64,000 nucleotides of DNA from Eubacteriales bacterium. Its GTDB lineage: Bacteria; Bacillota; Clostridia; Oscillospirales; CAG-272. A program made the translations under genes and the position numbers. This document shows positions 13,119-49,059 of the stretch, one piece after another. Where the stretch lies: contig JBGVPY010000065.1 of assembly GCA_045127235.1 (NCBI GenBank), forward strand, positions 5,546 through 69,545, read 5' to 3'. The notes under the pieces are model-generated. The model was given only the letters and a program-made list of their open reading frames with translations. It was not told the DNA's origin and did not search any database. The stretch's first letter is position 1. Each line of letters opens with the position of its first letter.

Positions 13119-13119
13119 T

Positions 13120-18685: not shown

Positions 18686-18686
18686 A

Positions 18687-20183: not shown

Positions 20184-21376
20184 AAAAATATTCATTTAGA
20201 GAATTAGTAGTGGATGCCCGAACAGGATTGAACCCTCGTAAAAATTTCACTCTTGGTAACGGAAGCAATTATTATATAACGATTAAAGATATTCATGATG
20301 GTAAAATTATAATTACCGACAAAACCGATCGCATTAACGATGAAGCCATCGCTATGATTAAGAAGCGTTCAAGGATTAAAAATGGCGATATCTTATTTAC
20401 AAGCATCGGTCGCATAGGCGAGACCGCTATTGTAATCGACAAAAACGACACATGGGATGTCAACGAATCGGTATTCATCTTTACACTTGATACAAAAATA
20501 ATAACTCAAGAGTATTTTTGTGCGTTAATGCTTTCTAAAAGTGTTCAAGATAAACTTCAAAGGGATAGTTCTGGTTCAACGTTCAAAAGCATCAAGATGA
20601 ATCAACTTGAGAAAATGGAATTTTTTATACCTTCTGTTGATGTACAGATTGAAATTACTCAAAAATTGAACCAAATCAAGGAGTTGATTTTGGCTAGACA
20701 AGAACAGATTGCATTGCATGATGATTTAATAAAATCCCGATTTATCGAGATGTTTGGTGATCCAATATTAAATCCATACAATTGGAATATTGTTAACATT
20801 ACTGAAGTGGTGGGTGGCAAGGTAACAAATGGGTTCTTTGCTAAGCGAGATGAGTACACAGAAAACGGAAATGTCAAAGTTTTGGGAGTAGCCAATATAG
20901 TAAACAGAATGTATTCTAATGTTGCGGATCTGCCGAGAACAAACGGAACTGCATCAGACATTCAAAAATTTGAAGTTCGCTATGGAGATATGCTTTTCTG
21001 CCGTTCATCACTTGTAGCAGAAGGTATAGGTAAAGCTTCTATCGTTCCACACGATGTGCCACCAAAGACATTATTCGAATGTCATGTGATACGATTGCCG
21101 TTAGACTTAAACAAATGTGTACCTGAGTTCATGCAGGTATTAAGCACAACGGATTATTTTAGAAACCAAGTCATAGCACAATCAAAAACGGCTACAATGA
21201 CTACAATTGGTCAAGATGGAATATTAAAAACAATGATCATTTTGCCACCAATAGAAAAACAAAAGCAATTTTTAGATTTCGTTAAACAGACCGACAAATC
21301 GAAATTTGAAATACAAAAAAGCCTTGAACAGCTTGAAATTTTGAAAAAATCTTTAATGCAAAAGTATTTTGGCTAA
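20180..21376 (+). CDS. hsdS: Type I R-M specificity subunit (two TRDs)
   Basis: TRD1 - conserved KSRFIEMFGDP - TRD2 - conserved TDKSKFEIQ. ATGA overlap with hsdM. Confidence 0.9.
   Translation: MKKYSFRELVVDARTGLNPRKNFTLGNGSNYYITIKDIHDGKIIITDKTDRINDEAIAMIKKRSRIKNGDILFTSIGRIGETAIVIDKNDTWDVNESVFIFTLDTKIITQEYFCALMLSKSVQDKLQRDSSGSTFKSIKMNQLEKMEFFIPSVDVQIEITQKLNQIKELILARQEQIALHDDLIKSRFIEMFGDPILNPYNWNIVNITEVVGGKVTNGFFAKRDEYTENGNVKVLGVANIVNRMYSNVADLPRTNGTASDIQKFEVRYGDMLFCRSSLVAEGIGKASIVPHDVPPKTLFECHVIRLPLDLNKCVPEFMQVLSTTDYFRNQVIAQSKTATMTTIGQDGILKTMIILPPIEKQKQFLDFVKQTDKSKFEIQKSLEQLEILKKSLMQKYFG
20735..20757 (+). repeat. 23-bp conserved hsdS core repeat, copy 1
   Basis: tcccgatttatcgagatgtttgg, identical at 22432-22454 and 23485-23507, all in direct orientation. 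Confidence 0.9.
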
Positions 21377-21428
21377 AAATAGTGGTGTAGGATGTTGGTA
21401 TATTCTAAAAATTAAGGAGTATACCAAC

Positions 21429-22424
21429 ATGAAAAACACAATTATTACTGATATTGAGCAAGGAATGCAAGGATTTCTTGACAATGCACAAATGAAAAAG
21501 CTTCACGAGATACTTACACATGCACTTTTTGGAGTTGAAATTGTTAAAACAGAAGAATTTTCCGAGAATAGCGAGGATTTTGATAATCAAACCTTGCTCA
21601 CAACCTTCCTTTCAGCTAAAAAAGTCGAGGGATGTAGTGAAAAAACATTAAAATACTATAAAGCTACTATTGAAAGAATGTTTGTTGATATTAAAATAAG
21701 CGTTTCCCATATAACGACAGACGATTTGAGAGAATACCTTGCTAATTATCAGCAAATAAACGATTGCAGTAAAGCAAACATTGATAATATTAGGCGCATT
21801 CTTTCAAGTTTTTTTGCGTGGCTTGAAGATGAAAATTACATATTGAAAAGCCCTGTTCGTAGAATCCATAAAATACGGACTACGAAAACAGTAAAAGAAA
21901 CATATACAGATGAGGCTCTTGAACAAATGCGAGATGCTTGTACTAATTTGCGAGATCTTGCACTAATAGACTTGCTATCTTCTACCGGAATGCGTGTTGG
22001 CGAGCTTGTAAAACTCAATATTTCTGATATAGATTTTGATAACAGAGAGTGTATAGTTTTTGGAAAAGGAAGCAAAGAACGTCCTGTTTATTTTGATGCA
22101 CGAACAAAAATACATTTGAAAAATTACGTTCAAAGTAGGAACGACGATAATCCTGCCTTGTTTGTTTCGCTTTTAAAACCATACAACCGCCTTGAAATAA
22201 GTGGTGTGGAAATCAGGATGCGACAGCTCGGAAGAGCGTTAGGAATAGATAAAGTTCATCCGCATAAGTTTCGAAGAACCCTTGCAACAAGAGCTATTGA
22301 CAAGGGAATGCCCATAGAACAGGTTCAACAATTGCTTGGACACGCCAAAATTGATACTACAATGCAATATGCAATGGTTAGTCAAAACAACGTAAAACTT
22401 TCGCACCGAAAATATATCGGTTGA
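21429..22424 (+). CDS. tyrosine site-specific recombinase (XerC/D-like) embedded in the hsd locus
   Basis: HPHKFRRTLATRAID...LLGHAKIDTTMQYA (HxxR...H...Y). AAGGAG RBS. A 10-bp hairpin at 21393-21429 spans the RBS and start. Confidence 0.88.
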   Translation: MKNTIITDIEQGMQGFLDNAQMKKLHEILTHALFGVEIVKTEEFSENSEDFDNQTLLTTFLSAKKVEGCSEKTLKYYKATIERMFVDIKISVSHITTDDLREYLANYQQINDCSKANIDNIRRILSSFFAWLEDENYILKSPVRRIHKIRTTKTVKETYTDEALEQMRDACTNLRDLALIDLLSSTGMRVGELVKLNISDIDFDNRECIVFGKGSKERPVYFDARTKIHLKNYVQSRNDDNPALFVSLLKPYNRLEISGVEIRMRQLGRALGIDKVHPHKFRRTLATRAIDKGMPIEQVQQLLGHAKIDTTMQYAMVSQNNVKLSHRKYIG

Positions 22425-22431
22425 TTTCAAA

Positions 22432-22454
22432 TCCCGATTTATCGAGATGTTTGG
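22432..22454 (+). repeat. 23-bp conserved hsdS core repeat, copy 2
   Basis: Identical 23-mer beginning 8 nt after the recombinase stop. Confidence 0.9.
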
Positions 22455-23010
22455 AGAGTGCGAGAATACAGTGCGTCTTGGTGATTGTTGTGAAGTTCAT
22501 GCAAGAATTGGATGGCAAGCACTAACAAGAGATGAACATATGAAAACGGGCGAATATATGCTTGTAACGGGAACGGATTTTAAAGATGGAGAAGTCAACT
22601 ACTCAACGTGTGTATATGTTGCTAAAGAACGGTATGAAATGGATAAACACATTATTTTAAGAAATGATGATGTGCTTATAACGAAAGATGGTACGATTGG
22701 TAAGGTAGCGATAGTTCATAACCTTCCTAAACCTGCGACTTTAAATGCAGGTGTATTTGTCGTAAGGCCTGACGAAATATTTAATAAAGAATATATTGCA
22801 AATGTTTTCAAAGGTCCATTATTTAGCGATTATGTAGAAGCGTCTAAAACGGGTGCGACAATAAAACACTTGAATCAAAAACACTTAGTAGAGTTTATGA
22901 TTCCTGTGCCTTCCTTAGAAGAGCAAGAAGCGTTTTCTCAATTTATAAAACGCATCGACAAATCGAAATATCATGGTGAATTCGCCTACAGATCGGAGGT
23001 AGCAGCATGA
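22447..23010 (+). CDS. half-size hsdS cassette (single TRD, no N-terminal TRD or independent start)
   Basis: The frame is open from 22396 and reads FKSRFIEMFGE. The only start is the Met inside that conserved repeat. It ends with the conserved IDKSKY. Confidence 0.7.
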   Translation: MFGECENTVRLGDCCEVHARIGWQALTRDEHMKTGEYMLVTGTDFKDGEVNYSTCVYVAKERYEMDKHIILRNDDVLITKDGTIGKVAIVHNLPKPATLNAGVFVVRPDEIFNKEYIANVFKGPLFSDYVEASKTGATIKHLNQKHLVEFMIPVPSLEEQEAFSQFIKRIDKSKYHGEFAYRSEVAA

Positions 23011-24098
23011 TAAATGAAAAGCTATTTACGGAATTGTACACGGATATAACCAAGAAAGCAACAAAAATTCCTCAAGAAAACTATCTTGACGAGGGAAACT
23101 ATCCTATTGTAGACCAAGGAAAAGGACAAATTGCAGGTCGTTGGAATGAAGCGGAAGGTTTGTGTGTCGAAATACCAGCTATAATCTTTGGTGATCATAC
23201 ACGAACTATTAAATATATTGACGAGCCGTTCTTCATTGGAGCAGATGGTGTAAAAGTTCTACGTCCAACAAACCAAGCGGATAATCCCAAGTATTACTAT
23301 TATGCTTTACAAGCGGCAAGAATTCCGAATTTAGGGTACAGTAGGCACTTTAAGGTTGTAAAAGAACTGATGATTAGGGTGTACACTCGTGCAGATCAAG
23401 ACCAAATTGTTTCAATCCTTGAAAAAATAGATGAAGTTATCGAAATCCGTCAAGCCGAGTTGTTGGCTATAGAACAGCTCGTCAAGTCCCGATTTATCGA
23501 GATGTTTGGCTCAACAGGAAAACAAGTTCCGTTGATAGATTATGTTTGGTTTCAAGAAGGTCCGGGTGTTCGTTCTGCTGATTTTACGGAAAAAGGAACA
23601 GTGCTGTTGACAGGCTCAAATATTAACGATAATGAAATATCATTTGGTTATAAAAGTGATAGACACATTTCAAATGAATTGGCATCAGGCAAATATGCTC
23701 ATTTTATGTGTGATAAAGATGATATTTTGGTTGTGTCTTCTGCTATTGACCCTGATAAGTTTGATAAAAAGGTCGTAGTAGTTGGTGTTGATAAGAAATA
23801 CTGTTTAAACACTGGTATTATTAGATTTAAACCTAATAAACAATATTTAACTCTTGGGTATTTTAGAGAGTTTTTAAAAACAGATTATTTTAAGCATCAA
23901 GTGAGCAACGAGATGAGAGGAATTGCTCAAATGCATTTTGGGCCATCACATCTAAAACAGATGACTATTTTACTACCAGACTCGATTGATAGTCAAATTG
24001 AGTTTGACGCATTTATGCAACAAGTCGATAAATCGAAATATTATTGTGTTTTAGCACTAAAAATCATAGAAAAATTACTCGCAGAGGTGAAATTATGA
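23007..24098 (+). CDS. hsdS: second full-length Type I specificity subunit
   Basis: TRD - VKSRFIEMFGS - TRD - VDKSKYY. ATGA overlaps with both neighbours. Confidence 0.85.
   Translation: MINEKLFTELYTDITKKATKIPQENYLDEGNYPIVDQGKGQIAGRWNEAEGLCVEIPAIIFGDHTRTIKYIDEPFFIGADGVKVLRPTNQADNPKYYYYALQAARIPNLGYSRHFKVVKELMIRVYTRADQDQIVSILEKIDEVIEIRQAELLAIEQLVKSRFIEMFGSTGKQVPLIDYVWFQEGPGVRSADFTEKGTVLLTGSNINDNEISFGYKSDRHISNELASGKYAHFMCDKDDILVVSSAIDPDKFDKKVVVVGVDKKYCLNTGIIRFKPNKQYLTLGYFREFLKTDYFKHQVSNEMRGIAQMHFGPSHLKQMTILLPDSIDSQIEFDAFMQQVDKSKYYCVLALKIIEKLLAEVKL
23485..23507 (+). repeat. 23-bp conserved hsdS core repeat, copy 3
   Basis: Identical 23-mer within the second hsdS. Confidence 0.9.
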
Positions 24099-27000
24099 GT
24101 AAATTTGAAATTTTAAACGAAAAAACTGAATATAAGGAGATATTGCGTTTGTGCAATGAGGCAGAAAATGAAGCTAATCCTTCTAATGTAGCATTAAAAT
24201 GTCGAGATGCTCTTAATGGGATAATTGCGTTCATTTATGAAAAAGAAGAAACTTACATGCCTCAATCTGCCACAATGCTTGAACTTATTGACGGAAAAGT
24301 TGTTTCCACCTTTGCACACTATTCTGTTATAATTGATTCTTTGCATTATATTCGTAAACTTGGAATGAATGCACAACACGGTGTTCATATAAAGAAAACT
24401 CAAGCTAATCTTGCACTTGATAACCTCGCTTTCTTTGTTGAATATCTGTATAAGAAAATAGAAAAACCAGACGAAATTAAAAACATTATTTTGCCGAAAT
24501 ATATGAGTGAAGCAGACACTCGTAAAATATATATTGACCTTTATTTAGGCGAAGCAGGTTGGAACGTTATGGAACCGAATACAACAACAAAGCTTGAAAG
24601 TGGCGCTGTTGTTCGTTGTGGTACTGTATATCCTTCTTGTGCTTGTTGTGAAATAAAAGTAGAGGGTTTACCTAATAAATCCGGAATTGGCTTCTGTGAT
24701 TATGTTCTTTATGGCAAGGACGGAAAACCACTTGCCGTTGTAGAGGCAAAAAAGACAAGTGTTGATGCAAATGTTGGTATTGCACAGGTTAAAGAATACG
24801 GAGAATGTATGCGTAAACAATACGGATATATTCCGGTGTTATACTATACAAACGGTTATGAAATTTGGGTTATTGATGGTACTTATCCATCAAGAAGGGT
24901 AATGGCTTTCCACACTCTTGAAGAATTAGCTTACATAATTCAAAAAAGAGATAGAAAAGACATAACTGACCTTACTATAAATGATAAAATTTCGGGCAGA
25001 CCGTATCAAAAAATGGCTATTACAAATATCTGTGAACGTTTTAACGAAAAACAACGTCGTGGGCTTATTGTAATGGCTACAGGAACGGGTAAAACAAGAG
25101 TTTCAATATCTCTTGTTGATGTATTGTTACGCAATAAATGGATTAAAAATGTTTTGTTCCTTGCAGATAGGACAAGTCTTGTAGAGCAGGCATTTAAAAA
25201 CTTCAAGAAGATATTGCCTGATATGAGCTATTGCGTTCTTTCCGATAAATCACTTGCGGATGAACCAAATGCAAGAGTAACATTTTCAACCCACCAAACA
25301 ATGATAAACTATATTGACGCAGAGGACAAGGAATATTCATCTGCACGATTTGATTTGATTATCATTGATGAAGCTCACCGTTCAATATTTAATAAGTACG
25401 GTTCAATATTTAAGTATTTTGACTCCCTTTTGGTAGGTCTTACCGCTACTCCAAAGGAAGAAGTAGATGCTAATACATATCAATTATTTAATTGTGAAAA
25501 TGGAGAGCCTAACTTTGCATATTCATTAGAAGAAGCAGTAAAAGACAAATATCTTGTTCCGTATAAGGTGCAAGCAAGAACAACAAAATTGTTATCTCAC
25601 GGAATAAAATACTCTGATTTATCGCAAAAAGATAAGGATACTATTGAGTCTATTATTGATTTGGGTGGAGTAGAGGACGACTTTGTAATACCTAAAGAAA
25701 CTTTGTTTAAAATTTTCTATAACAAGGACACTTGTAAACGTGTTTTAGAAGATTTAATGCAAAACGGATTAAGAGTTGAAGCTGGTCAAAAGGTAGGTAA
25801 AACAATCATTTTTGCATACAATCATATACACGCTGACTTAATAGTTAAAACCTTCCACGAGGTTTATCCTGCGTATGGTGAGGATTATTGTCAACTCATA
25901 GATAATAAAGTAAAACACGCAAATCGCTTGATTGAAAAATTTGATATGGACGACAACTTTAGAATTGCTGTATCTGTTGATATGCTTGATACAGGTGTTG
26001 ATATTCCTGCGGTTTTAAATCTTGTATTCTTTAAGCCTGTACGTTCTAAAATCAAATTTGTTCAAATGATAGGACGTGGTACTCGTTTGTGCGAAGGATT
26101 AATTGATGGAAATGATAAAACTCATTTCTTGATTTTTGACTATTGTTCAAACTTTGAGTACTTTGACAAGCATCCAGACGGAGCAAACAATCAAAACGGA
26201 AAATCGTTATCTCAAAAATTGTTTGATATTCGTATGAATATTTTAGTTGAACTTCAAAGATACGAACATCAAAGCAACCCTGAACACAAGGAATATTATG
26301 ACGAATTAAAGCAGTATTTGTTTAATAAGGTTCAGGAAATCAAGAAAAATTCTGCCCGTATTTCTGTAAGGGAAGAAATGGCTTATGTTGATAAGTATAT
26401 TGACTATGACAGATGGGCAGCAATATCTCAATTAGCTAATAAAGAAATTCAGTTACATTTAACAAAACTCATAGACAATGAATTGGACCAGAAAAAAGGT
26501 AGCTTGTCATTTGATTTAAGGATGCTTGATATTGAATTATCGGTATTAGCAGAAGGAAATATAGGCAAGGCTATAAAATCTGTGGAAACAATTCGCAGGG
26601 TTTCAAATATTTTGTTAAATGAAGCAGGTTCTATAACAGCAGTAATAAATCAAGCAGAAACACTACAAAAGCTTGTAAGTGTTGAGTTTTGGAAAAATCC
26701 TAAAGTTAAGGATTTGGAAGAAATTCGTGAACAAGTGCGTGAACTGATGCAATATTTACCACCTAAAGTTCCACCAGTAGAAATAGATGTTGAAGATGAA
26801 ACTGAAGATAGTGGATATGATGTATCAGGCTTGATTGATATAAGAACCTATAAGGAAAAAGTAATAGATTATCTTGCTGAAAACACAGATAATGCAACTA
26901 TTAAGAAAATTCAAAATCTTGAGCCTATCAATGCTGAGGATGTAAAAGAGCTTGAAAGAATTTTGTGGACCGAGCTTGGAACAAGAGAAGATTACGAAAG

Positions 27001-27292
27001 TGCAACCGATATTGATAATTTGGCAGTTTTCATTCGTTCTATTGTTGGTATAGAGCAATCCTCTATAAACGAAAAGTTTGGAGAATATTTATCAGGAAAT
27101 ACACTTAATTCTGAGCAACAAGAATTTCTTAAGGCTATTATTGATTATGTTCGTGAAAATGGTGATATCAAGGCGGAAGATTTAATTGAAAAATCTCCAT
27201 TTGACAATTATGATATTGTAACATTGTTTGGTAGTTATGTTCCAATTTTGTTGAATATTGTAAATACGATGCATAATAGTATAGTTGCGTGA
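24095..27292 (+). CDS. hsdR: Type I restriction enzyme R subunit
   Basis: Nuclease motif DYVLYGKDGKPLAVVEAKK, Walker A VMATGTGKTR, DEAH box IIIDEAHRS, QMIGRGTR. ATG 24095 follows GAGGTGA. Confidence 0.92.
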   Translation: MSKFEILNEKTEYKEILRLCNEAENEANPSNVALKCRDALNGIIAFIYEKEETYMPQSATMLELIDGKVVSTFAHYSVIIDSLHYIRKLGMNAQHGVHIKKTQANLALDNLAFFVEYLYKKIEKPDEIKNIILPKYMSEADTRKIYIDLYLGEAGWNVMEPNTTTKLESGAVVRCGTVYPSCACCEIKVEGLPNKSGIGFCDYVLYGKDGKPLAVVEAKKTSVDANVGIAQVKEYGECMRKQYGYIPVLYYTNGYEIWVIDGTYPSRRVMAFHTLEELAYIIQKRDRKDITDLTINDKISGRPYQKMAITNICERFNEKQRRGLIVMATGTGKTRVSISLVDVLLRNKWIKNVLFLADRTSLVEQAFKNFKKILPDMSYCVLSDKSLADEPNARVTFSTHQTMINYIDAEDKEYSSARFDLIIIDEAHRSIFNKYGSIFKYFDSLLVGLTATPKEEVDANTYQLFNCENGEPNFAYSLEEAVKDKYLVPYKVQARTTKLLSHGIKYSDLSQKDKDTIESIIDLGGVEDDFVIPKETLFKIFYNKDTCKRVLEDLMQNGLRVEAGQKVGKTIIFAYNHIHADLIVKTFHEVYPAYGEDYCQLIDNKVKHANRLIEKFDMDDNFRIAVSVDMLDTGVDIPAVLNLVFFKPVRSKIKFVQMIGRGTRLCEGLIDGNDKTHFLIFDYCSNFEYFDKHPDGANNQNGKSLSQKLFDIRMNILVELQRYEHQSNPEHKEYYDELKQYLFNKVQEIKKNSARISVREEMAYVDKYIDYDRWAAISQLANKEIQLHLTKLIDNELDQKKGSLSFDLRMLDIELSVLAEGNIGKAIKSVETIRRVSNILLNEAGSITAVINQAETLQKLVSVEFWKNPKVKDLEEIREQVRELMQYLPPKVPPVEIDVEDETEDSGYDVSGLIDIRTYKEKVIDYLAENTDNATIKKIQNLEPINAEDVKELERILWTELGTREDYESATDIDNLAVFIRSIVGIEQSSINEKFGEYLSGNTLNSEQQEFLKAIIDYVRENGDIKAEDLIEKSPFDNYDIVTLFGSYVPILLNIVNTMHNSIVA

Positions 27293-27346: not shown

Positions 27347-29119
27347 ATGGAACAACAACTTTTTGACACGACACCATTAAAGGTAGGACAGTTACTTGAA
27401 AAAATAGAAACTGGAGAATTAGGTTTGCCAGATTTACAAAGACCTTTTGTTTGGGAAGACTCGAAAGTAAGGGATTTGTTTGACTCAATGATGAAAGGTT
27501 ATCCAATCGGATATTTGATGCTTTGGGAATGTCCTGAATTAGAAAAGAAAAAGTCTATTGGTGTTGAGGCACACAATTACCCCACACCAAAAGAAGTTAT
27601 AATTGACGGACAACAAAGATTAACTTGTCTGTATGCTGTTATTAAAGGAAAGAAAATTTTTGACAAAAAACAGCAAGAGAGGGAAATAGTTATTTCGTAC
27701 AATCCTTTGACAAATATTTTTGAAGTAGGAAATCAATCTACTTTGAGAGATAAACATTGGATATATAATATCAGCAGTGCTTATACCACACCTCAATGGA
27801 AATTTATGAATTCGTATATTTCTACATTGGCGGAAATCCGAAATGCAAAAGGGACTCCTTTAACAAGTGAAGAGGAAACGATAATAGGTGAGAACTTAAC
27901 TGCGTTGTATAATTTGACTCAATTTATTCTACCTGTATTTAATATTAAATCGGATGCTGATGAAGAATCTGTGTCAAATATTTTTGTTAGAGTAAATTCG
28001 GGTGGTGTAAAATTAAAAGAGAATGATTTTATTTTAACCTTGTTATCTTTATATTGGGCAGAGGGCAGAAAACAAATAGAAGAATTTGCACGTCAATCTA
28101 TAACGCCAAGTAAAGAACCAACTTCTTATAATCTTTTGACCGAAGTCGAACCGCAAGATATTGTTAGAGTTATTATTGCATATGGTTTTGATAGAGCAAG
28201 ATTGAAATACGGCTACAAGCTCTTAAGGGGTGCAGACTTTGATAAAAAAGGTGTAGTTGACATATCATTACGTGATAAGAGATTTGATGTTCTTAAAGAA
28301 AAATTACCTGATATTCTAAACATTCATACTTGGCACGAGTTTTTAAAGGCTGTTATGAATGCGGGTTACTTAGGAAAGGAACAGATTTCTTCTGGAACAT
28401 CTGTGTTCTATGCGTATGCTTTTTATCTTATCGCAAAGTACAGATTTAATGCATCTTACAATGAGAATATGTTAATAACATCAAAATGGTTTTACTACAT
28501 ATCTTTAGTTTCATTGTATTCGGGTTCGTTCGAGTCTGTAATGGAAGGTCATTTGAACGTTATAAAAACATTAAATACATTTGACGAATACAAAGAATTC
28601 ATAAACCAAAAGATTAGTGAAAGACTTACAAATGACTATTTTGAATATACACTTGTTGGTTCGGAAGGCTTGGCAGTTTCAGGAAAAGGAAATCCGGCTT
28701 GGAACGCGTATTGTGCTGCACTTAATATTTTAGATAGTCATATATTGTTTTCAAAGGCTACGCTGCTGGTTTCTAAACTTTATGAACCGGGAGTTGATGG
28801 TACAAGAAAATCACTTGAAAAGCATCATTTGTTTCCTAAAGCATATCTCAAAAAATTGGGTTATACTGACAGCAAAATAAATCAGATGGCTAACTATGCT
28901 TATATTGATTGGAAAGACAATGCTGAAATATTAGATGAAGCTCCTTCTGTTTACTATCCAATAATTTGCAAGGGAAGAACAGAAGAAGAAATTATAAAAA
29001 TGGAAGAAGAGAATGCTTTACCAAGAGGTTGGGAGAATATGTCTTATGAAGAATTTCTTGTGAAAAGACGTGTTTTGATGGCGAAAAAGATAAAGGAAGC
29101 ATTTGAAAGGTTGAATTAG
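27347..29119 (+). CDS. GmrSD-like Type IV (modification-dependent) restriction enzyme, DUF262 + DUF1524-type His-Me finger
   Basis: N-terminal LPDLQRPFVWE...IIDGQQRLT (DUF262/ParB-like). C-terminal EKHHLFPKAYL...ANYAYIDWKDN (HNH-like). Confidence 0.8.
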   Translation: MEQQLFDTTPLKVGQLLEKIETGELGLPDLQRPFVWEDSKVRDLFDSMMKGYPIGYLMLWECPELEKKKSIGVEAHNYPTPKEVIIDGQQRLTCLYAVIKGKKIFDKKQQEREIVISYNPLTNIFEVGNQSTLRDKHWIYNISSAYTTPQWKFMNSYISTLAEIRNAKGTPLTSEEETIIGENLTALYNLTQFILPVFNIKSDADEESVSNIFVRVNSGGVKLKENDFILTLLSLYWAEGRKQIEEFARQSITPSKEPTSYNLLTEVEPQDIVRVIIAYGFDRARLKYGYKLLRGADFDKKGVVDISLRDKRFDVLKEKLPDILNIHTWHEFLKAVMNAGYLGKEQISSGTSVFYAYAFYLIAKYRFNASYNENMLITSKWFYYISLVSLYSGSFESVMEGHLNVIKTLNTFDEYKEFINQKISERLTNDYFEYTLVGSEGLAVSGKGNPAWNAYCAALNILDSHILFSKATLLVSKLYEPGVDGTRKSLEKHHLFPKAYLKKLGYTDSKINQMANYAYIDWKDNAEILDEAPSVYYPIICKGRTEEEIIKMEEENALPRGWENMSYEEFLVKRRVLMAKKIKEAFERLN

Positions 29120-29705: not shown

Positions 29706-31265
29706 ATGGAAGGCTTCAACGAAGGGTATAGTTATTTTGCTAAAAATGCAGGTGTTCTCTCTGCTGCTTTTAAGTCTGCTATTGACGGAGAAAAAGGTGC
29801 AATACATAATGATTTTATATCAAAAGCTAATGCAGAAATAGATTCTTTAGTAAAAACTTTAAATACTACATTTGAAGGTCATAAAACTCCAACAGCTCAA
29901 TTAAAAGGTAATGTCGCTGAGCATATCCACGCAAGCTCATTTAATGTAAATGCACACCTTAATCATTCGTCAAGCAGCGCAGAGGTTTTGAAAAGTAATA
30001 AGTATGGTTCTGTTGATATACAGGTAACTTGTGAAGATGGTACAATTAAAAATTTCAGTTTGAAATATGATAAGTCGGGTGGAGAATCTGCGAAACAACA
30101 AGCGATAACCGTTATGGAAAAATTCCACAAATATAAAAGTGCCGGTGGAAAAGAGGACTTAGCAACTTATCTTGAAAAAAGAGGTTATGATGAAGAAACC
30201 GTATATACAGATTTGGTATATTCGGGACAGTATAGAGTAATCCCTAAAGGTCAGCTAACAGAAGCGGTAAGCTGGTTAAAAAGAAAAATTGGAGAGAATG
30301 AATTAACAAGACCTGAACAAGCTGCTCGTTATCGTGAAACGTTAGAAATGCTTGAAACTAAAATAAGTGATAATGCCGGGATTGAGTCTATTGAATTCAC
30401 TAACGAAGAAATGGCAAAAATTGCGGAATTAGCAAAAAAAGGTGATGTAACACGAGAGGATCTTGAGAAACTTGGATTTATTGTTCCTGACGGATATGGA
30501 TTAAAGTATGTGTTGGGGCAGGCTTTTAAAGCAGGTTTATCTGCTGCACTAATTTCTTTGGTGTTAAATGTTGCACCCGAAATATTAAGGGCTATAACAC
30601 ATCTAATTAAAGAAGGATATGTTGATAAAGAACAGTTTAAGAATATTGGTTTTGCCGCTATAAAAGGAGCTTCCGAGGGCTTTGTTACAGGAACTATTTC
30701 TGCAGCAATTACAGGAGCTTGCAAATTAGGATTACTTGGAGAAGCGGCTAAGAACGTAAACGCTTTGATTATTGGAGCGATAACTGTTATTGCATTTAAT
30801 GCGATTAAGAATGCTTATAACGTATCTAAAGGTAAAATTACAAGAACGCAAATGGCAAATGCTCTTGTGAAAGATGTTATTGTTACAGGTTGTTCGTTGG
30901 CTTTAGGAACGGTTTCTCAATATTTTATTCAAATACCTATTTTTGGGTATATGGTAGGTAGCTTTATAGGTTCAATTATAGGCACTTTCACATATGAATT
31001 TGGTTATAAAGGTGTTTTATCTTTATGTGCAAGTACAGGTTTTACGATGTTCGGTTTAGTTGAACAAGATTATACTTTACCAGAAGATGTGATACAATCA
31101 ATCGGTATTAAAGTTTTTGATTATGATAAATTTAATTTCAAAAAATTTGAACTAAAACCGTTTGAAGTTAAGCAATTTTCAGTAAAATCACAGGGAATGA
31201 AAATGTTTGAGATAAAACCATTACGCAGGGGCGTAATAGGAGTGTCAACTATAGGATATGTATAG
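29706..31265 (+). CDS. unknown protein: ~270-aa soluble N-domain + Gly/Ala-rich multi-TM region + short F-x-x-K repeats
   Basis: ATG immediately follows the upstream TAA. TM-like segments AGLSAALISLVLNVA, GTISAAITGACKLGLLG, ALIIGAITVIAFNAI and IPIFGYMVGSFIGSIIGTF. Tail FDYDKFNFKKFELKPFEVKQFSVK. Confidence 0.65.
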   Translation: MEGFNEGYSYFAKNAGVLSAAFKSAIDGEKGAIHNDFISKANAEIDSLVKTLNTTFEGHKTPTAQLKGNVAEHIHASSFNVNAHLNHSSSSAEVLKSNKYGSVDIQVTCEDGTIKNFSLKYDKSGGESAKQQAITVMEKFHKYKSAGGKEDLATYLEKRGYDEETVYTDLVYSGQYRVIPKGQLTEAVSWLKRKIGENELTRPEQAARYRETLEMLETKISDNAGIESIEFTNEEMAKIAELAKKGDVTREDLEKLGFIVPDGYGLKYVLGQAFKAGLSAALISLVLNVAPEILRAITHLIKEGYVDKEQFKNIGFAAIKGASEGFVTGTISAAITGACKLGLLGEAAKNVNALIIGAITVIAFNAIKNAYNVSKGKITRTQMANALVKDVIVTGCSLALGTVSQYFIQIPIFGYMVGSFIGSIIGTFTYEFGYKGVLSLCASTGFTMFGLVEQDYTLPEDVIQSIGIKVFDYDKFNFKKFELKPFEVKQFSVKSQGMKMFEIKPLRRGVIGVSTIGYV

Positions 31266-31570: not shown

Positions 31571-31603
31571 AAAAAAAGCCATCTCGTTTGAGATGGCTTT
31601 TTT
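31571..31603. terminator. bidirectional intrinsic terminator between convergent blocks
   Basis: A-run, then agccatctc / gagatggct stem (9 bp), then T-run. Confidence 0.85.
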
Positions 31604-32140: not shown

Positions 32141-33463
32141 TTAAGCTGCTTTTAATAATTTCTTTAATTGTTTGTTAGCGTATGGTAGCCAAGTTCCATT
32201 AACATAATTTAATATTTCTTCACTTGGTGTAGAATTATGTTCACCACGAACCTGTAATATTTGATGTCTGGAAAGAGAATATTCAATCGTTACAAGTGGT
32301 GTTTTTGGATGTTCTTTATCCCTTACAAAGAAGATTAAAGTATTTTCATCAACGAATTTTTTATCATAACCCATTCTTCCAACGCAGTGGTGTAAAGTAT
32401 TTCCTTCTTTTTGAAGTTCGTTTGGAGATTTGGCTATAATACAAATAAATGAGCCTTTACATTTTTCCTGTAAAGACTCATATTTTTTCGCAATAATTTT
32501 GAATTGAGCATTAAATTCTTTTCTCGCTTTAGCATCAGCTTTTGCTTTGGCACTTGAATATTCGTCAATTCTTGTATCGTGCCAAAACTTAAAATCGTGA
32601 GGATATCTGTTTTTATCAATGCTCATATCAATACCTAAATAGATGCAGGCATTAAGATAATCTAAGTAACTTCTGTTAGAGGTTTTTTGTGTTTCTATGT
32701 AAGATATGAACTTCTCATAATCACCTTTTTGTTTAAGCATATCTCTAACAGGCTGCATTCCTTCCTCGTGAATGAGTCTTTTTCTTGCTGACTCATAAGA
32801 TTGAGCTTTATCTAAGTCCCAACCTTTTTTATAGGCTAAGAGAATAGCAGTTACATGATAGCCAAAATGTTTTATTCTAAGGCGATTTTTATATAGCCAT
32901 TTGCAAAACTGTTTATCTTTTTTACATTGTCTTAAAAGCATTATGCTCATAGCCCTTGCTTCCAATCCCATTTTTACCAAATATTCAGCTTGAGGGAAGC
33001 GTTCATATACTTTTAAGTATTTGAAAAAATCGCCATAAGGATATTGTTCATAAGCACAGTATTTGTATTCTGGGAATTTGGCTACATATTCTTTGTTTAT
33101 GCAAGGACACCAAATGTGGAAATACTTATCATCTGCCTTTCCCCATTCACCATCTGCATACCAAACTTCACGTCCATAACCTTCATAGAACCAATTTGTT
33201 ACATATCCACCCAACCAAAAGTAGGCAATATCTTTGACATAGCAATCTTTTGAGTGCATAGAGTGAATAACAACCTGTTTGCAAATCCATTTCTTGTATC
33301 TCGATTTAACAGCTACAATAATTTGAACAAGTTCACCGTCATTTTTAGTAAGATAAGAGTAATATCTTGTGTGTCCGTCTTGAGCTTTATAGCTTTCCAA
33401 ATCCTTTTTCTTAATGAGATTTAATATATATTTTGGGATTGGCTTAATTTTCTCAATTTTCAT
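32141..33463 (-). CDS. PcfJ-like protein (conjugative-element associated)
   Basis: C-terminal GNTLHHCVGRMGYDKKF...LIFFVRDKEHPKTPLVTIEY is PcfJ-like from memory. The start at 33463 lies 8 nt after GGAGGG. Confidence 0.55.
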   Translation of the reverse strand: MKIEKIKPIPKYILNLIKKKDLESYKAQDGHTRYYSYLTKNDGELVQIIVAVKSRYKKWICKQVVIHSMHSKDCYVKDIAYFWLGGYVTNWFYEGYGREVWYADGEWGKADDKYFHIWCPCINKEYVAKFPEYKYCAYEQYPYGDFFKYLKVYERFPQAEYLVKMGLEARAMSIMLLRQCKKDKQFCKWLYKNRLRIKHFGYHVTAILLAYKKGWDLDKAQSYESARKRLIHEEGMQPVRDMLKQKGDYEKFISYIETQKTSNRSYLDYLNACIYLGIDMSIDKNRYPHDFKFWHDTRIDEYSSAKAKADAKARKEFNAQFKIIAKKYESLQEKCKGSFICIIAKSPNELQKEGNTLHHCVGRMGYDKKFVDENTLIFFVRDKEHPKTPLVTIEYSLSRHQILQVRGEHNSTPSEEILNYVNGTWLPYANKQLKKLLKAA

Positions 33464-33464: not shown

Positions 33465-34685
33465 TTAACAACCCTCCAAGTTTTCCATTCCAAACATTTC
33501 TGCTAAGATAGCGACGTGTTCAATGCTATATGGCATTTCTTCGTCAACTACCTCACCTGTCTTTTTGTCTATTGTAATTCCTTCAACCTTGACAGGCTCT
33601 ATTTTATCCCTTACCATTTCATTGCCATTTTCACGAATTACAAGGGAATGATTTAACGTTATTTTATTGAAATACGATTCGGCAGCGTGATAAGGGAAAC
33701 CAATCATTGCAAATCTACCGTTGCCTAATTCTCGGCTCGTTATTGTCATGTTAAGTTCATTACCTATCAACTTAGCATTATCACCGAAAATCTCGTAAAA
33801 ATCGCCCAAACGCACGGCTATAACGTGGTCTGGATATCTGTTTTGAATTTCCATATACCTTTCGTAGAGAGAAGGTTTTGGCTTTTCTTCTACAGGTGGT
33901 ATAAATTCTTCTTTTCGTTCAATGGCAAAATCAGGTTCTACTTCTATAATGTAGTCATAGAACCTTTGAATATTTTCATCAAGTGAATAATCGTCGTCAT
34001 ACGGAAAATCGTATTTGCGAATAATTCCTACGTTTGTAGCGGGCCCTGCGTACATTATTTGTTTTTCATATTCAAGGAAGAAGCAGTCGCCACTTGGAAA
34101 TCTTAATAAGTTAGATTTTAAGTTTGCTAATGGGTTTATAGGTTCTTCTTCAACAGGTTCTTCCTCAATTATATCGTCCTCTACAGGCTCGATTTTAACA
34201 GCTTCTTCTTTTTCTTCATTATCTGAGCCGTTATTGTCTTTGTCAGTCATAAATATGTCTTCTAAGCCCTCAAACATAGAAATAACTTCGCCCTCTTTCT
34301 TTACAGGTGGCTTAGGTTCAATTTTAACTTCTGGCTTAGGAGTGGTTTTTCTAACGGGTGTAGGCTTTTTATATTCGCTGCCATCCTCGTTATATAAAAT
34401 TCCTTCAATGGAATCTTCTGCAAAGTAATGTATTAACCAACCGAATACAACCTTATCTTCAACCATGGCACTTCTTGCACCTTTTTCAGCCAATTTCTTA
34501 GCTTCTTCTGTTGCAAATGTCATAAATGTTTCAAGTGTCTTTTTGTTTATAAGTGTTTTTCCGTCCTTTTGGATTTTCACACCATTGTTTATTTTTTCAA
34601 TCAGTAATTCACCGGCATTTTCCTCAAGGTATGCTTTAAGAAATTCTTGTTCTTTTGTTTTTGTTTTTATTTCTAATTTGCTCAT
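33465..34685 (-). CDS. fusion protein: N-terminal unknown domain, acidic/Pro-Lys linker, C-terminal MutS domain I-like module
   Basis: RYPDHVIAVRLGDFYEIFGDNAKLIGNELNMTITSR...MIGFPYHAAESYFNKI parallels the MutS N-terminus (YPD..LF.R.GDFYE.F..DA...LT.R...M.G.PYHA...Y). No ATPase domain. Confidence 0.7.
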   Translation of the reverse strand: MSKLEIKTKTKEQEFLKAYLEENAGELLIEKINNGVKIQKDGKTLINKKTLETFMTFATEEAKKLAEKGARSAMVEDKVVFGWLIHYFAEDSIEGILYNEDGSEYKKPTPVRKTTPKPEVKIEPKPPVKKEGEVISMFEGLEDIFMTDKDNNGSDNEEKEEAVKIEPVEDDIIEEEPVEEEPINPLANLKSNLLRFPSGDCFFLEYEKQIMYAGPATNVGIIRKYDFPYDDDYSLDENIQRFYDYIIEVEPDFAIERKEEFIPPVEEKPKPSLYERYMEIQNRYPDHVIAVRLGDFYEIFGDNAKLIGNELNMTITSRELGNGRFAMIGFPYHAAESYFNKITLNHSLVIRENGNEMVRDKIEPVKVEGITIDKKTGEVVDEEMPYSIEHVAILAEMFGMENLEGC

Positions 34686-34753
34686 TTTTAATAATCTCCT
34701 GTTTTCTTATAATTTTCTGTATAAAGTAAAAAATCCCAACTGCGTGTACAACG

Positions 34754-36410: not shown

Positions 36411-36968
36411 CTATCGAAGCTCTATAATGCCATTAGCATATTCGTAAAAGCCTTCATAGCTTAAATCTCTGCCATAAGCATCATAGTCTATATAGTTTTC
36501 TAAATATTTTGGAATCTCGTAGCAGCAAACCTCATGTATCATATGGTAAGCTAAATCGTTAAAGTCCATATTAGGATAGAGAATAATGTCATCATCCCAA
36601 TTTGTTCCATAACTATCAACGAGTTCTTCCCAATCTCTAAAGCTTCTAATTTCAAGATAAGCTTCAAATACATCTCTTTTATAGCTATCATCAAGAATGC
36701 CTGATGCTTTTAGTGTTTCAAACAGATTTTGAGGATGAACGTAATCCCAATTTTGACTGTTACAAGGTATTCCTTCAACATCTTGAATAAACAATTCTTC
36801 GTCTATACCGTCAAGTTCAAAACCTTGTTTTTCGAGTTCTTCTACGATTTCATCCCAATCGTTATAATCGGTTAAATCAATCCAAGAAGAACCTAAGGCT
36901 CTTTCGTTACATTCGTTATATGAACCCCAAGAGCCTATTACAATTCCGATGTCTGGCAAACCCATCAT
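36411..36968 (-). CDS. ardA: ArdA-like antirestriction protein
   Basis: GSWGSYNECNERALGSSWIDLTDYNDWDEIVEEL...EELFIQDVEG matches the ArdA N-terminal pattern (YN.G.L.G.WIDL...E). Very acidic. Confidence 0.7.
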   Translation of the reverse strand: MMGLPDIGIVIGSWGSYNECNERALGSSWIDLTDYNDWDEIVEELEKQGFELDGIDEELFIQDVEGIPCNSQNWDYVHPQNLFETLKASGILDDSYKRDVFEAYLEIRSFRDWEELVDSYGTNWDDDIILYPNMDFNDLAYHMIHEVCCYEIPKYLENYIDYDAYGRDLSYEGFYEYANGIIELR

Positions 36969-36972: not shown

Positions 36973-37608
36973 TTATTCCTCCGTTTCTTCCCAGCCTTTT
37001 TCTTTGAATATTGGCTGTATTAAATCATAATCTTGTGGTATTTCGTCGGTGATATTTATTTCATCCCAAGCCCAACTACCAACTAAATCAAAAGTAGAAG
37101 CATCAGTATGGGCGATGTAATCTCCACCACCAAGTCCATTGCCGATACAGGTTAGTAGTGAAAGTGGATGCAAACACCATTCTTCGTCATAGCATTTCAT
37201 AACGCTTGATTTGTAGTAAAGAGAGCAGTCAACATATTCCTTTTTGGTATGATTGATTATGTATTTATCCATAAAATTAAAAGCAACTCGGTCAATAGCC
37301 TTACTTCTATCAGGCTCTCTCCAAGCTGCTCTATGATAATTGTAAATTTGAGTTTTTGTTAAACCGTTAAAATTATCTTTGAAATAACATTCAAATTGAT
37401 TAGCATAATCACCCATCCAAATAAGTCTTACAGGCTTATCTGAGTTGTAAATTTTGTCGCAAACGGCTTCCATAAACCAGTTTCCAACCCATGAATGTTC
37501 TGTGATTTTTGCTGAGGTGTATTCCTCTTGTCCGTCAATGATTAAGTTTCTATTTAGAATTTCAATTCTATTATTTGCTTTGATTATTGGTCTGTAGTAT
37601 TGTCCCAT
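36973..37608 (-). CDS. unknown family protein, paralog of 38054-38827
   Basis: Shared blocks YYRPI, PVRLIWMGDY, INHTKKEY, LLTCIGNGLGGGDY and GSWAWDE. Confidence 0.65.
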   Translation of the reverse strand: MGQYYRPIIKANNRIEILNRNLIIDGQEEYTSAKITEHSWVGNWFMEAVCDKIYNSDKPVRLIWMGDYANQFECYFKDNFNGLTKTQIYNYHRAAWREPDRSKAIDRVAFNFMDKYIINHTKKEYVDCSLYYKSSVMKCYDEEWCLHPLSLLTCIGNGLGGGDYIAHTDASTFDLVGSWAWDEINITDEIPQDYDLIQPIFKEKGWEETEE

Positions 37609-38053: not shown

Positions 38054-38827
38054 TTAATATATTTTACTTTTGAATGTTAAGTTGATTTCAGTGTAATCTG
38101 CTGGTGGTTCGTGATAGATTGAAAGGTCATCCCAAGCCCAAGAGCCAATTAAATTGAAGTTAGAGTCCTCAGTTGGATGGTTGTAATCACCATCTCCTAA
38201 GCCATTTCCAATACAGGTTAAAAGTGGAATAGGGTTAAAGCAAATACCATTTACAACGCTATTTTTGTAATATTTAGCACCGTAAAAGTATATTCGCTTA
38301 GAGTGATTGACTATAAATTTATCAATGATAGAGAAGTCGCTTGCAACTGCTGATGTGGTATAAACATCTTTGTTCCAATATTTGAAGCAATAATGCTTAA
38401 TTTTTATTGGCGAAATTCCATTTGCAAAGCATACAGGCGAGTCCATCAGTCTGTGAGATTTGTTGCCAAGCCAAATAAGTCTTACAGGAAAGTGAGAGTT
38501 ATATATTTTTTCACATATTGAATTTACAAATTTATCACCTATTCGTGCATGGTCAATAAGTCTATCAGATGTACGATATTCACGCTTATGATAGATATAA
38601 GTTCTGTCATAAACGGAAGTTTTTCTATTCGACTGAACGATTGGTCTGAAAAACTGTTCTGATAACTCATCATTTTCAAATTCAATTAAAGAGCGTATAT
38701 AGTTAAATTCGTGATTGCTAAAATCGCACATTCCTTGTGCTACAAAGTCTGAATGCCCTTCGATTTCTGTAAAATCATAAATGAAACGGCTTAAAGCTCT
38801 TTCTAATCTTTCTTTTGAAATGTTCAT
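38054..38827 (-). CDS. unknown family protein, paralog of 36973-37608 with extra N-terminal ~60 aa
   Basis: Start at 38827 follows GGAGGA. FFRPIV, PVRLIWLGN, VNHSKRIY, LLTCIGNGLGDGDY and GSWAWDD. Confidence 0.65.
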   Translation of the reverse strand: MNISKERLERALSRFIYDFTEIEGHSDFVAQGMCDFSNHEFNYIRSLIEFENDELSEQFFRPIVQSNRKTSVYDRTYIYHKREYRTSDRLIDHARIGDKFVNSICEKIYNSHFPVRLIWLGNKSHRLMDSPVCFANGISPIKIKHYCFKYWNKDVYTTSAVASDFSIIDKFIVNHSKRIYFYGAKYYKNSVVNGICFNPIPLLTCIGNGLGDGDYNHPTEDSNFNLIGSWAWDDLSIYHEPPADYTEINLTFKSKIY

Positions 38828-38837
38828 TTTCTTCCTC

Positions 38838-39068
38838 CTAAATTTGTTTAAAAACATCGTGAATAATGGCAGTTATACTATCTGCCGTAACTTCAATTTG
38901 ACGGCATCTTACACCATCTTTATCTAACAGGTGAACGTATTCGCCTTGATTTGGTATGTATTCATATTCAGCTCCATACCAACCAGAGTTAGACATTACT
39001 AATAAATCGGAAAGGACTTCCGTTACGAAAGCCCTTTTATCCTCTTTAGTTCCTCGGTAGATTTTCAT
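38838..39068 (-). CDS. hypothetical protein
   Basis: 76-aa ORF. Confidence 0.5.
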   Translation of the reverse strand: MKIYRGTKEDKRAFVTEVLSDLLVMSNSGWYGAEYEYIPNQGEYVHLLDKDGVRCRQIEVTADSITAIIHDVFKQI

Positions 39069-47673: not shown

Positions 47674-49059
47674 ATGGACAATTTATGGTTGCTTACCGAA
47701 GAACGCCCTAAGCTTTCTGTTGTATTAACAATTTTGGACGAATATAACAACGACTTTGGCGCGTCCGTAACGGTTAGTGAGAACTTTAATATTAGACCTA
47801 TTATCAAAAACGGTAAATTTACATTTGAATATTTGGTAGAGGGTGTATCTGTTCAAGGAATCGCAAATGTCTTTATAGAAATAGTCAGCGGTAATTCAAG
47901 TTTTGTTGATTACATGCTTATTCGACAGGAAACGAAGCCTACAGATCATTCTTTAGACAATGTTCTTATGGCGATTGAAGAAACAAAGACAAGTGACGCC
48001 GAATCAAGAAACACAGGCATATATCAGCGTGCATCAAAATTTGTTTACATAGACAACTACTGCCCTCATGCAAAGAAGTACATGTTATACAATGAGGAAA
48101 TGACGCCTGATGAAGATAGAACTCCCACAGATACAAATAGATTTGGAACGAACATGCTTCTTACTTTGGGAGTAAAGTTTATCGGCAAAACCATGAGAGG
48201 TTTTAGAGCTTTTGGAAATGTCGATGAGATGGTTGCACAAAAATCGAGCATGCGTCTGCCGAATCATACGAATGTTCCCATTCTTCTTCACAAGTATGCG
48301 GATAGGATTACTGTTTCTGGACGATTGGCAAAGCCAAAAGATGCCGGAAATATTGGTCATGACCCTAATATTGGTGCTCTTTCTTGCATTGGATACACGC
48401 TCCGCAAGCTCGGTTGGGATAAGGATATTGTTGTAACACATCACGGAGTTTCTCAATCCTATGTTGACAGAACGAGAGGGAGAAATAAGTGTTTGTTCCT
48501 CTTCAGCATGAATCAGATGAAGTTGGACGGCATAACTATGCCTTCCATCGTTCCTATGCCAGAATTTTATTGGAACTACTCATGTTCTTCTGAAAAAGTA
48601 GCGTCAATCTTCTTGCACCTTACATGTCAATATTCAGGAATTCACGGAATCTATGAAAATCACGCTGGTTGTGAACGCGGATATTTCAGAACACAAACAG
48701 GAGCTTTTTTGGCATTACCGAAAAAGGATAGATTTGGAGAAAACCTTTTACTTCCTGATGTCGTTTTGTGTGACGATGCAATAAGAGAAATCTACAATGT
48801 TGAAGGAAAGAAATTATCCACTCTTTATGATGGCGTCGCAGAGGTTGACACATACGATTCAATAGAAGATGAGTTCATAAAACCTTACTATCGTGGATAT
48901 TCTATTCAACGTTGGATATCTATTTTCGGAGGAAATCTAAAAAGAATTCCTCACGAAAAAGTTTTGATTTATTTAAATGAATCAGGAGAGGTCTATATAA
49001 ATAATGCCGCTCCTGCGAACATTAAAGCTGCGTTCAACAGAATCGGCATTACTTGTTAA
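47674..49059 (+). CDS. putative restriction endonuclease (unknown family)
   Basis: Convergent with and overlapping the methyltransferase gene end. Possible PD-ExK elements FVDYML...AIEETK. Assignment is mainly by context. Confidence 0.5.
   Translation: MDNLWLLTEERPKLSVVLTILDEYNNDFGASVTVSENFNIRPIIKNGKFTFEYLVEGVSVQGIANVFIEIVSGNSSFVDYMLIRQETKPTDHSLDNVLMAIEETKTSDAESRNTGIYQRASKFVYIDNYCPHAKKYMLYNEEMTPDEDRTPTDTNRFGTNMLLTLGVKFIGKTMRGFRAFGNVDEMVAQKSSMRLPNHTNVPILLHKYADRITVSGRLAKPKDAGNIGHDPNIGALSCIGYTLRKLGWDKDIVVTHHGVSQSYVDRTRGRNKCLFLFSMNQMKLDGITMPSIVPMPEFYWNYSCSSEKVASIFLHLTCQYSGIHGIYENHAGCERGYFRTQTGAFLALPKKDRFGENLLLPDVVLCDDAIREIYNVEGKKLSTLYDGVAEVDTYDSIEDEFIKPYYRGYSIQRWISIFGGNLKRIPHEKVLIYLNESGEVYINNAAPANIKAAFNRIGITC

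Follow-up and report, generated by a model that had tools for sequence, protein, structure and literature searches.

Insertion of MutS domain I in a PcfK/AcrIIA9-family protein encoded by an integrated mobile element of gut Clostridia

Overview

The DNA analysed here (the window) is a stretch of 64,000 nucleotides from an Eubacteriales bacterium of the class Clostridia (assembly GCA_045127235.1, contig JBGVPY010000065.1, positions 5,546 to 69,545), and the gene under study occupies positions 33465..34685 of its minus strand. The open reading frame starts with ATG and codes for a protein of 406 residues of the PcfK/AcrIIA9 family, in which a copy of domain I of the mismatch-repair protein MutS (MutS_I) is inserted in the PcfK scaffold, between a short linker motif and a conserved C-terminal tail. 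The protein is a modular, non-enzymatic member of this family, encoded by the first gene of a PcfK-PcfJ pair, and the module is real and widespread in gut Clostridia. A probability of roughly 0.45 is given here to the reading in which the protein would act as a non-catalytic reader of irregular DNA, mounted on a clamp-docking scaffold for establishment or anti-defence and possibly competing with MutS.

The MutS domain I and its DNA-contacting residues

The inserted domain (residues 269–360; 33606..33881, minus strand) was identified by Pfam, by a search of PDB sequences and by comparison of its AlphaFold2 model with known structures using Foldseek. The Pfam profile MutS_I (PF01624) matches residues 274–344 with an E-value of 4.9e-17, at 62.6 bits against a gathering cut-off of 20.6, and phmmer retrieves from the PDB the MutS proteins of Thermus aquaticus, Escherichia coli and Neisseria gonorrhoeae over residues 12–100 (E~5e-10). 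The MutS equivalog models of NCBIfam are matched only at positions 4–86, with 64.5 bits against a whole-protein cut-off of 480. The AlphaFold2 model of the 406-residue protein, built from 63 homologs, has a predicted local distance difference test score (pLDDT) of ~90 across residues 270–360, and every one of the 50 top-ranking Foldseek hits in the PDB is a domain I from MutS or MSH3, with a probability of 1.0 and a root mean square deviation (rmsd) of 2.2–2.6 Å over 86–91 aligned columns (for example 1nne_B, 2.3 Å over 91 columns, and 1ng9_B, 2.2 Å over 86). Two of the checks named by an earlier, sequence-only reading of this DNA, a profile search against PF01624 and a structure comparison, both returned MutS domain I, as that reading had proposed from an alignment by eye that included the Phe-X-Glu motif, and the motif itself is intact. 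The reading had placed the domain in the last ~125 residues, at about nucleotides 33560–33840; it lies at about 33606–33881 and does not form the C-terminal end, being followed by a conserved tail of 35 residues.

Alignment to the E. coli MutS structures (1e3m, 5akb) places the GDFYE motif (Gly294–Glu298; 33792..33806, minus strand) on Gly34–Glu38, with Phe296 and Glu298 in the positions of Phe36 and Glu38, the two residues that contact the mismatch. Arg318 aligns with Arg58 of E. coli MutS, a residue of the backbone-contacting type. No match to the remaining MutS domains, II, III, IV and V (PF05188, PF05192, PF05190 and PF00488), was found by Pfam in the protein or in its neighbours, and the claim that connector, clamp and ATPase domains are missing is borne out.

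A word-indexed protein search (E<1e-3) returned ~5000 homologous proteins, nearly all unnamed and gut-metagenomic. GDFYE is retained in 97 of 105 MutS_I copies of the close homologs and was seen 138 times among the 148 nearest representatives of the domain. In a diverse set of 125 short MutS_I proteins, conservation reaches at least 90% at GDFYE, Ala44, two threonines, the arginine equivalent to Arg58, a glycine, a second arginine, Gly70, Pro72, His74 and Tyr79 (E. coli numbering). Conservation of GDFYE and of the Arg58 equivalent indicates that the wedge and the backbone contact are under purifying selection, and this pattern of residues argues for a MutS-type contact with DNA and not for a decayed remnant. 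A degraded mutS fragment was rejected on separate grounds, namely the intact reading frame, the conserved architecture of the ~5000 homologs and a clade separate from that of cellular MutS; a chance match to the motif was rejected by the E-values and the fold.

Modular architecture of the protein and its family

All segments described below are encoded on the minus strand. The PcfK/AcrIIA9 core domain (residues 1–107; 34365..34685), recognised by Pfam PF14058 and HHalign, is followed by a disordered linker rich in proline and lysine (residues 108–133; 34287..34364; pLDDT <50) whose sequence is variable across homologs. Next comes a short linear motif, VISMFEGLEDIF (residues 134–145; 34251..34286), conserved in homologs and a candidate for binding the β sliding clamp, and then a second disordered linker, acidic in composition (residues 146–190; 34116..34250; pLDDT <50), which in the alignment varies in length and is missing from many homologs. 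Residues 191–255 (33921..34115) form an optional small β-rich domain of four to five strands and one helix, modelled by AlphaFold2 with a pLDDT of 88–95 in a run on residues 1–262. MutS_I follows, and the protein closes with a conserved C-terminal tail (residues 372–406; 33468..33572) of pattern D..TGEV..E...A.L.E.FG..LEG, in which Thr376, Gly377, Glu378, Leu394, Phe398 and Gly399 are at least 90% conserved in the homolog alignment. This tail is also kept in relatives devoid of MutS_I. A ribosome-binding site, AGGAG, was read from the sequence 10 nt 5' of the ATG (34696..34700).

The sequence-only reading had described the domain as joined to another one by a linker of Pro/Lys-rich and acidic character, and two such disordered stretches do exist. 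Two points have to be corrected: what it called an unrelated N-domain is PcfK/AcrIIA9 (PF14058), and a folded domain of ~65 residues (191–255), which it had missed, sits between the acidic linker and MutS_I.

The same modular plan is found in the family as a whole, namely a PcfK core, a Pro/Lys linker, the short motif, an acidic linker, an optional small domain, none, one or two copies of MutS_I, and the C-terminal tail. A set of 84 loci was analysed, 80 of them on contigs from a collection with one genome per species and 4 on metagenome contigs. One MutS_I is present in 57 of these loci and none in the other 27; the small middle domain is confined to a sub-clade (6/84 loci) and occurs there with or without MutS_I. 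Tandem arrangements of two or three MutS_I are seen in some relatives, such as P0064, which consists of PcfK and two MutS_I, and echo the two copies of domain I that face the DNA in the MutS dimer. The named hosts of the 84 loci are all metagenome-assembled genomes of Clostridia (Christensenellaceae, Eubacteriales and Borkfalkiaceae, among others), and several genomes carry two or three copies of the family gene.

Outside this set the fusion is scarce. IMG/VR holds 27 PcfK loci, a single one with MutS_I; tblastn against the PLSDB plasmids gave no PcfK-MutS_I fusion, only cellular mutS genes and one polyvalent protein; and the INPHARED phages contain one partial homolog, 55% identical, on a faecal 'Bacteriophage sp.' contig. 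It follows from this scarcity that the fusion is carried for the most part by elements integrated in the chromosomes of uncultured gut Clostridia. Recombinases were found within ±10 kb in only 8 of the 84 loci (seven tyrosine recombinases at loci with MutS_I and one serine recombinase at a locus without it), a number underpowered for judging whether MutS_I goes with tyrosine integrases of the Tn916 type rather than with serine recombinases. No paper describing the PcfK-MutS_I fusion was found in the literature on PcfK, PcfJ and MutS domain I in mobile-element or anti-defence contexts.

A candidate clamp-binding motif in the linker

The short motif is the sole conserved part of the disordered linker, with conservation confined to its Q, S/T, L/M, F and D positions, and Ser136 and Phe138 within it are invariant in 63 homologs. 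Across the family it takes the form Q-[ILMA]-[ST]-[LM]-[FW]-[DE]-[FLM]-[ML] and lies 17–29 residues past the PcfK core, with the glutamine kept in 56 of 66 distinct versions; nine Clostridia loci carry the version QLSLF. Minimal members of the family terminate at the motif. The PcfK protein of the enterococcal plasmid pCF10 (L086, 17208–17984, minus strand) ends in ...KKPTKKSETKSERKEVDEQIDLFECV (QIDLFECV), the enterococcal relatives have Q[IMV][DNKA]LFE at the C-terminus or within a few residues of it, and HHalign superposes the motif of the window protein on the C-terminal QIDLFEC of pCF10 PcfK. Every PcfK/AcrIIA9-family protein examined bears a motif of the Q-φ-x-L-F type after a basic linker.

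The consensus for binding to the β sliding clamp is QφxLF, in its more specific form QL[S/D]LF, in which positions 1, 4 and 5 weigh most (bioRxiv 10.64898/2026.05.27.728225). The clamp motifs of Bacillus subtilis include QLSLF in PolC, QLDLF in Pol Y1 and QLSFF in MutS (same source), and the QLSLF of the family loci is identical to that of PolC. On the strength of this fit of the family and pCF10 motifs to the consensus, PcfK proteins are predicted to dock on the clamp, DnaN. The window protein itself departs from the rule: its linker peptide, ...GEVISMFEGLEDIF, contains the degenerate version VISMF(EGLEDIF), with a valine in place of the glutamine, and this version is that of its sub-clade, in which binding to the clamp may be weaker or retargeted.

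The PcfK/AcrIIA9 core and its PcfJ partner

The Pfam match of the N-terminal domain to PcfK (PF14058) scores 29.8 bits against a cut-off of 27 and spans only positions 30–73 of the 139 in the profile. A longer relationship is seen with HHalign, which aligns residues 16–138 with residues 139–257 of pCF10 PcfK (97.6% probability and E=3.5e-12 against the enterococcal/pCF10 PcfK proteins). AcrIIA9 carries a PcfK domain (PMC6739104), and family members such as the relative P0341 are named by NCBI 'Cas9 inhibitor AcrIIA9 family protein'. No HMM for PcfK or AcrIIA9 was found in NCBIfam, and the name must therefore come from another rule. The core is modelled by AlphaFold2 with a pLDDT of ~80; a Foldseek search with the model of residues 1–262, which covers the core and the middle domain, gave no significant match in the PDB or in BFVD (best E-values 0.41 and 7e-3).

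Immediately downstream lies a PcfJ-family gene (32141..33463, minus strand; Pfam PF14284, E=1.8e-30), whose ATG at 33463 is placed 1 nt past the TAA of the PcfK gene and whose ribosome-binding site, GGAGG, is read within the 3' end of the latter. Given this spacing and the internal site, the PcfJ gene is probably translationally coupled to the PcfK gene. PcfJ directly follows in 74 of the 84 loci, and the order PcfK then PcfJ is also that of pCF10; the protein is a likely functional partner of the PcfK-family protein. It has the C-terminal motif ...NTLHHCVGRMGYD..., found no match in a PDB sequence search and, like the PcfK-family protein, has no model in PADLOC.

Place among the MutS_I domains of mobile elements

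A HMMER search of 1.84 billion cluster representatives (50% clustering) with the isolated domain as query gave 7363 matches with E<1e-3 and 665 with E<1e-10. The best 150 matches are almost all proteins other than MutS, either of 90–420 residues, with the domain at varied positions, or giants of 1000–4659 residues. Among 125 of the short proteins, 124 match MutS_I and 44 match PcfK in Pfam, and no further family recurs. Four large proteins were scanned in the same way. One of them (P0124) consists of ArdC-N, a zincin metallopeptidase (MPTase) and two MutS_I; in the other three, MutS_I is followed by a methylase and/or an SNF2 helicase, with DUF7007 in two and LPD25 in one.

MutS_I has been described before in the polyvalent proteins of conjugative elements and phages of Bacteroidetes and Firmicutes (Iyer et al. 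2017, PMC5512222), where it co-occurs with ArdC-N in ~80% of cases and was predicted to recognise features of single-stranded or irregular DNA on the entering molecule. From its sequence, the window domain belongs to this mobile-element clade; it is 40–49% identical to domain I of cellular MutS. The statement in the same paper that polyvalent proteins are the only occurrence of MutS_I outside MutS is outdated by the large PcfK-MutS_I family. What was already known is that MutS domain I modules devoid of ATPase reside on mobile elements; what is new is the fusion to PcfK/AcrIIA9 and the abundance of small stand-alone forms, neither of which was found in PMC5512222 or in other literature.

A side match was recorded on the Chroococcidiopsis plasmid pB (NZ_CP097482.1), where a 2256-residue 'strawberry notch C-terminal domain' protein (L001, 64–6834) matches MutS_I with 34% identity (E=6e-10); given this match, the mobile-element domain may extend beyond Bacteroidetes and Firmicutes.

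Possible roles on incoming DNA

With the Phe-X-Glu wedge and the Arg58-type contact kept, MutS_I probably binds DNA that is kinked, mismatched or in part unpaired. As the connector, lever, clamp and ABC ATPase domains are missing, the protein would neither form a sliding clamp nor signal to MutL. The motif of the PcfK scaffold would place it on clamp-loaded, freshly synthesised DNA, and domain I together with a clamp motif would amount to the same two handles that are used by the MutS of Firmicutes (QLSFF). In this scenario the protein would occupy or shield irregular DNA, whether of the element or of the host, at the establishment stage, and would act as a competitor of MutS/MutL or of nucleases instead of repairing. 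The PcfK core may add a separate anti-defence activity, a possibility raised because AcrIIA9 binds Cas9. The sequence-only reading had offered two ideas of this kind. The first, a decoy that masks mismatches or competes with MutS, gains some support from the conserved GDFYE and Arg58 equivalent and from the resemblance of QφxLF to the β-clamp handle of MutS; it loses some with the finding that MutS_I is optional. The evidence fits the second just as well, namely that the protein binds junctions or irregular DNA generically. The setting on incoming DNA assumed in that reading also fits, since the gene shares its orientation with ArdA in a block of an integrated mobile element.

Several points weigh against a clamp-docked reader that competes with MutS. 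Beyond the identity of the MutS_I domain, its parts are deduced from sequence, docking on the clamp included, and the VISMF of the window protein lacks the glutamine at position 1, one of the three key positions for clamp binding. The 27 loci without MutS_I keep the same PcfJ partner, so that the core function of PcfK is independent of a domain which can be dispensed with. MutS binds DNA as a dimer through domains I and IV, and a lone domain I may therefore bind weakly. Mismatch repair is not known to act as a barrier against elements with site-specific integration. Finally, the transfer machinery of the element was not found: its backbone holds a Rep and secreted proteins, and no recognisable ATPases of a type IV secretion system (T4SS).

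Alternatively, the protein could be an escort or targeting module for single-stranded DNA and junctions, unrelated to mismatch repair, whose MutS_I would read the single-stranded or hairpin features of an element that is being transferred or replicated as a rolling circle. It would then act in the way of ArdC-N, shielding the DNA or helping complementary-strand synthesis to start, possibly by recruiting the clamp. The prediction and the ArdC-N association published by Iyer et al. speak for such a role, as do the combination of ArdC-N, MPTase and two MutS_I in P0124, the single-stranded intermediates implied by the rolling-circle Rep of the backbone, and the clamp-like motif, which could equally serve replisome recruitment. 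However, the known target of MutS domain I is a kinked duplex with a phenylalanine inserted at the mismatch, and not single-stranded DNA, and the strict retention of Phe-X-Glu points to contact with a mismatch or an extrahelical base. The escort role is considered rather unlikely.

A bolder version of the preferred reading is viewed with still more doubt. It would make PcfK/AcrIIA9 proteins in general clamp-docking factors, and those with MutS_I ATPase-less mimics of MutS that block MutS/MutL locally on nascent DNA of the element. Mismatch repair or MutL nicking would then be inhibited locally during establishment, a possible target being the heteroduplex joints left by integrases of the Tn916 type.

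It is quite improbable that the protein is primarily an anti-CRISPR, with a PcfK core that inhibits Cas9 as AcrIIA9 does and with MutS_I as an accessory that would concentrate the inhibitor on DNA or disturb the R-loop or target engagement. The N-terminal domain does belong to PF14058 and the AcrIIA9 family, AcrIIA9 is reported to block DNA binding and cleavage by SpyCas9, a published correction implies that it binds Cas9, and the gene lies within an anti-defence block that contains ArdA. Yet most AcrIIA9 homologs come from genomes that have no II-A self-targeting or no II-A system, AcrIIA7 and AcrIIA8 of the same screen were later found not to inhibit SpyCas9, the Pfam match covers just the part of the PcfK profile given above, and neither the PcfJ partner nor the QφxLF motif is explained by binding to Cas9.

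Least credible by far is a MutS_I that serves as a protein-binding decoy, titrating a host or defence factor that docks on MutS domain I or poisoning host MutS complexes: its 40–49% identity to the cellular domain would be enough for surface mimicry and neighbours in the block such as ArdA act by mimicry, which favours it indirectly, but it is the DNA-contacting residues that are conserved best, MutS dimerises through domain V, absent here, and MutS domain I is not known to have a binding partner.

Likeness to known systems

With the polyvalent proteins of Iyer et al. the window protein shares the clade of its MutS_I, the lack of an ATPase, a place on mobile elements, hosts among the Firmicutes and a predicted role in non-catalytic DNA binding early in invasion. 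It differs in its size of 406 residues and in its composition, since only PcfK and MutS_I were detected and neither ArdC-N nor a metallopeptidase nor any catalytic domain, and its partner domain PcfK/AcrIIA9 is not mentioned in PMC5512222. The likeness to pCF10 PcfK lies in a homologous core, in a basic linker followed by a motif of the QφxLF type and in the PcfJ gene that comes next, whereas pCF10 PcfK has an N-terminal extension of its own and terminates at the motif. Both pCF10 PcfK and AcrIIA9 (141 residues; Uribe et al. 2019) are devoid of MutS_I, of the small middle domain and of the C-terminal tail, and inhibition of Cas9 is known only for the Bacteroidetes-type prototype of AcrIIA9.

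The bacterial MutS proteins (E. coli, 1e3m; T. aquaticus, 1ewq; B. subtilis) have in common with the window protein the fold of domain I and the GDFYE wedge, and their QLSFF/QMSLL peptides are comparable to the clamp-binding-like motif of the PcfK family. Unlike MutS, the window protein lacks domains II–V, dimerisation, the ATPase, the sliding clamp and activation of MutL, and it is no repair enzyme. Docking on the β clamp is a known device of mobile elements, used by TnsE of Tn7, by several IS transposases and by clamp inhibitors of phages. The PcfK family shares with these a short peptide resembling QφxLF, borne on a flexible linker; it differs from them in that clamp binding is only predicted, and the window motif is moreover without its glutamine.

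Mobile DNA is rich in MutS domain I modules that lack the ATPase, and this locus provides a small and tractable example, of 406 residues, with PcfJ as a clear partner gene. Should the protein indeed bind DNA with mismatches or distortions at the clamp, mobile elements would have their first natural factor shown to interfere with, or exploit, the entry point of mismatch repair, relevant to gene flow between diverged gut bacteria and useful for recombineering. The motif that resembles a clamp-binding site, present throughout the PcfK family, is a new lead that can be tested. It suggests a function linked to the replisome for the widely annotated 'AcrIIA9 family', which, if true, would explain the abundance of AcrIIA9 homologs in genomes without type II-A CRISPR.

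Genomic setting

The PcfK and PcfJ genes belong to a block of about 17 mostly small genes on the minus strand, from ~40.2 down to 31.6 kb, which also includes a DUF4326 protein and the anti-restriction gene ArdA (36411..36968, minus strand; Pfam PF07275, E=1.6e-18), 1.7 kb upstream of the PcfK gene. ArdA is a frequent neighbour of AcrIIA9-family genes (PMC6739104), and 33 of the 84 loci have it on the same strand, less than 6 kb upstream. A bidirectional terminator-like hairpin (31572..31603, terminator scan) closes the block. Two other genes of the block, at 36973–37608 and 38054–38857 (both on the minus strand), are paralogous and match phrog_3156.

Upstream of the block, and divergent from it, are genes for a helix-turn-helix regulator, an AAA_25 ATPase and a large serine recombinase. 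The anti-defence block of the window is placed at the edge of the element, beside recombinase genes; in relatives it begins right at the border of the insertion (L003–L005) or beside xis/int genes of the Tn916 type (L002). On the other side, and convergent with the block, come a type I restriction-modification (R-M) locus, a GmrSD/HEC-05 gene and, at 4.1–16.3 kb, the backbone. The backbone genes (4137–16314, plus strand) are syntenic with those at 13206–20715 of a related locus (L088), where they directly adjoin the block. They code for a rolling-circle Rep (PF23343), possibly truncated with its 241 residues against 360 in L088, and for five further secreted or membrane proteins of 187–702 residues with N-terminal transmembrane segments. 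These five have no Walker A motif and no match in Pfam or PHROG, and T4SS ATPases were not found.

For this element the window yielded no assignable origin of transfer (oriT), relaxase or T4SS. The label 'conjugative' would accordingly be an assumption, made by analogy with relatives such as pCF10 and with the literature, in which AcrIIA9 homologs are reported on integrative and conjugative elements. A MobL-family relaxase gene and two adjacent tyrosine integrase genes at the right end of the window (59292–63696, plus strand) probably belong to a separate mobilisable element. Scans with Rfam and for tRNAs and inverted repeats gave nothing notable in the window or in the region upstream of the block, and a promoter scan stayed at chance level.

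The remaining observations concern defence genes. The type I R-M locus (18669–27292, plus strand) contains HsdM, HsdR and two HsdS genes (20180–21376 and 23007–24098) around an open reading frame resembling a tyrosine recombinase (21369–22424), and looks like a phase-variable specificity shufflon. The GmrSD/HEC-05-type gene codes for a type IV restriction enzyme (27347–29119, plus strand) and is followed by one for a 519-residue protein (29706–31265, plus strand) with a weak match to PDC-M09B of PADLOC; the two are defence cargo between the backbone and the anti-defence block. At 47674–51980 a gene for a type II restriction endonuclease (PADLOC, 5e-62) converges with those for an N6_N4_Mtase and a 648-residue methyltransferase of the D12/Dam class. 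Further to the right, a STAND NTPase of 1414 residues (52205–56449, plus strand) matches the models of the Avs2 anti-phage system (PADLOC, 2.7e-65).

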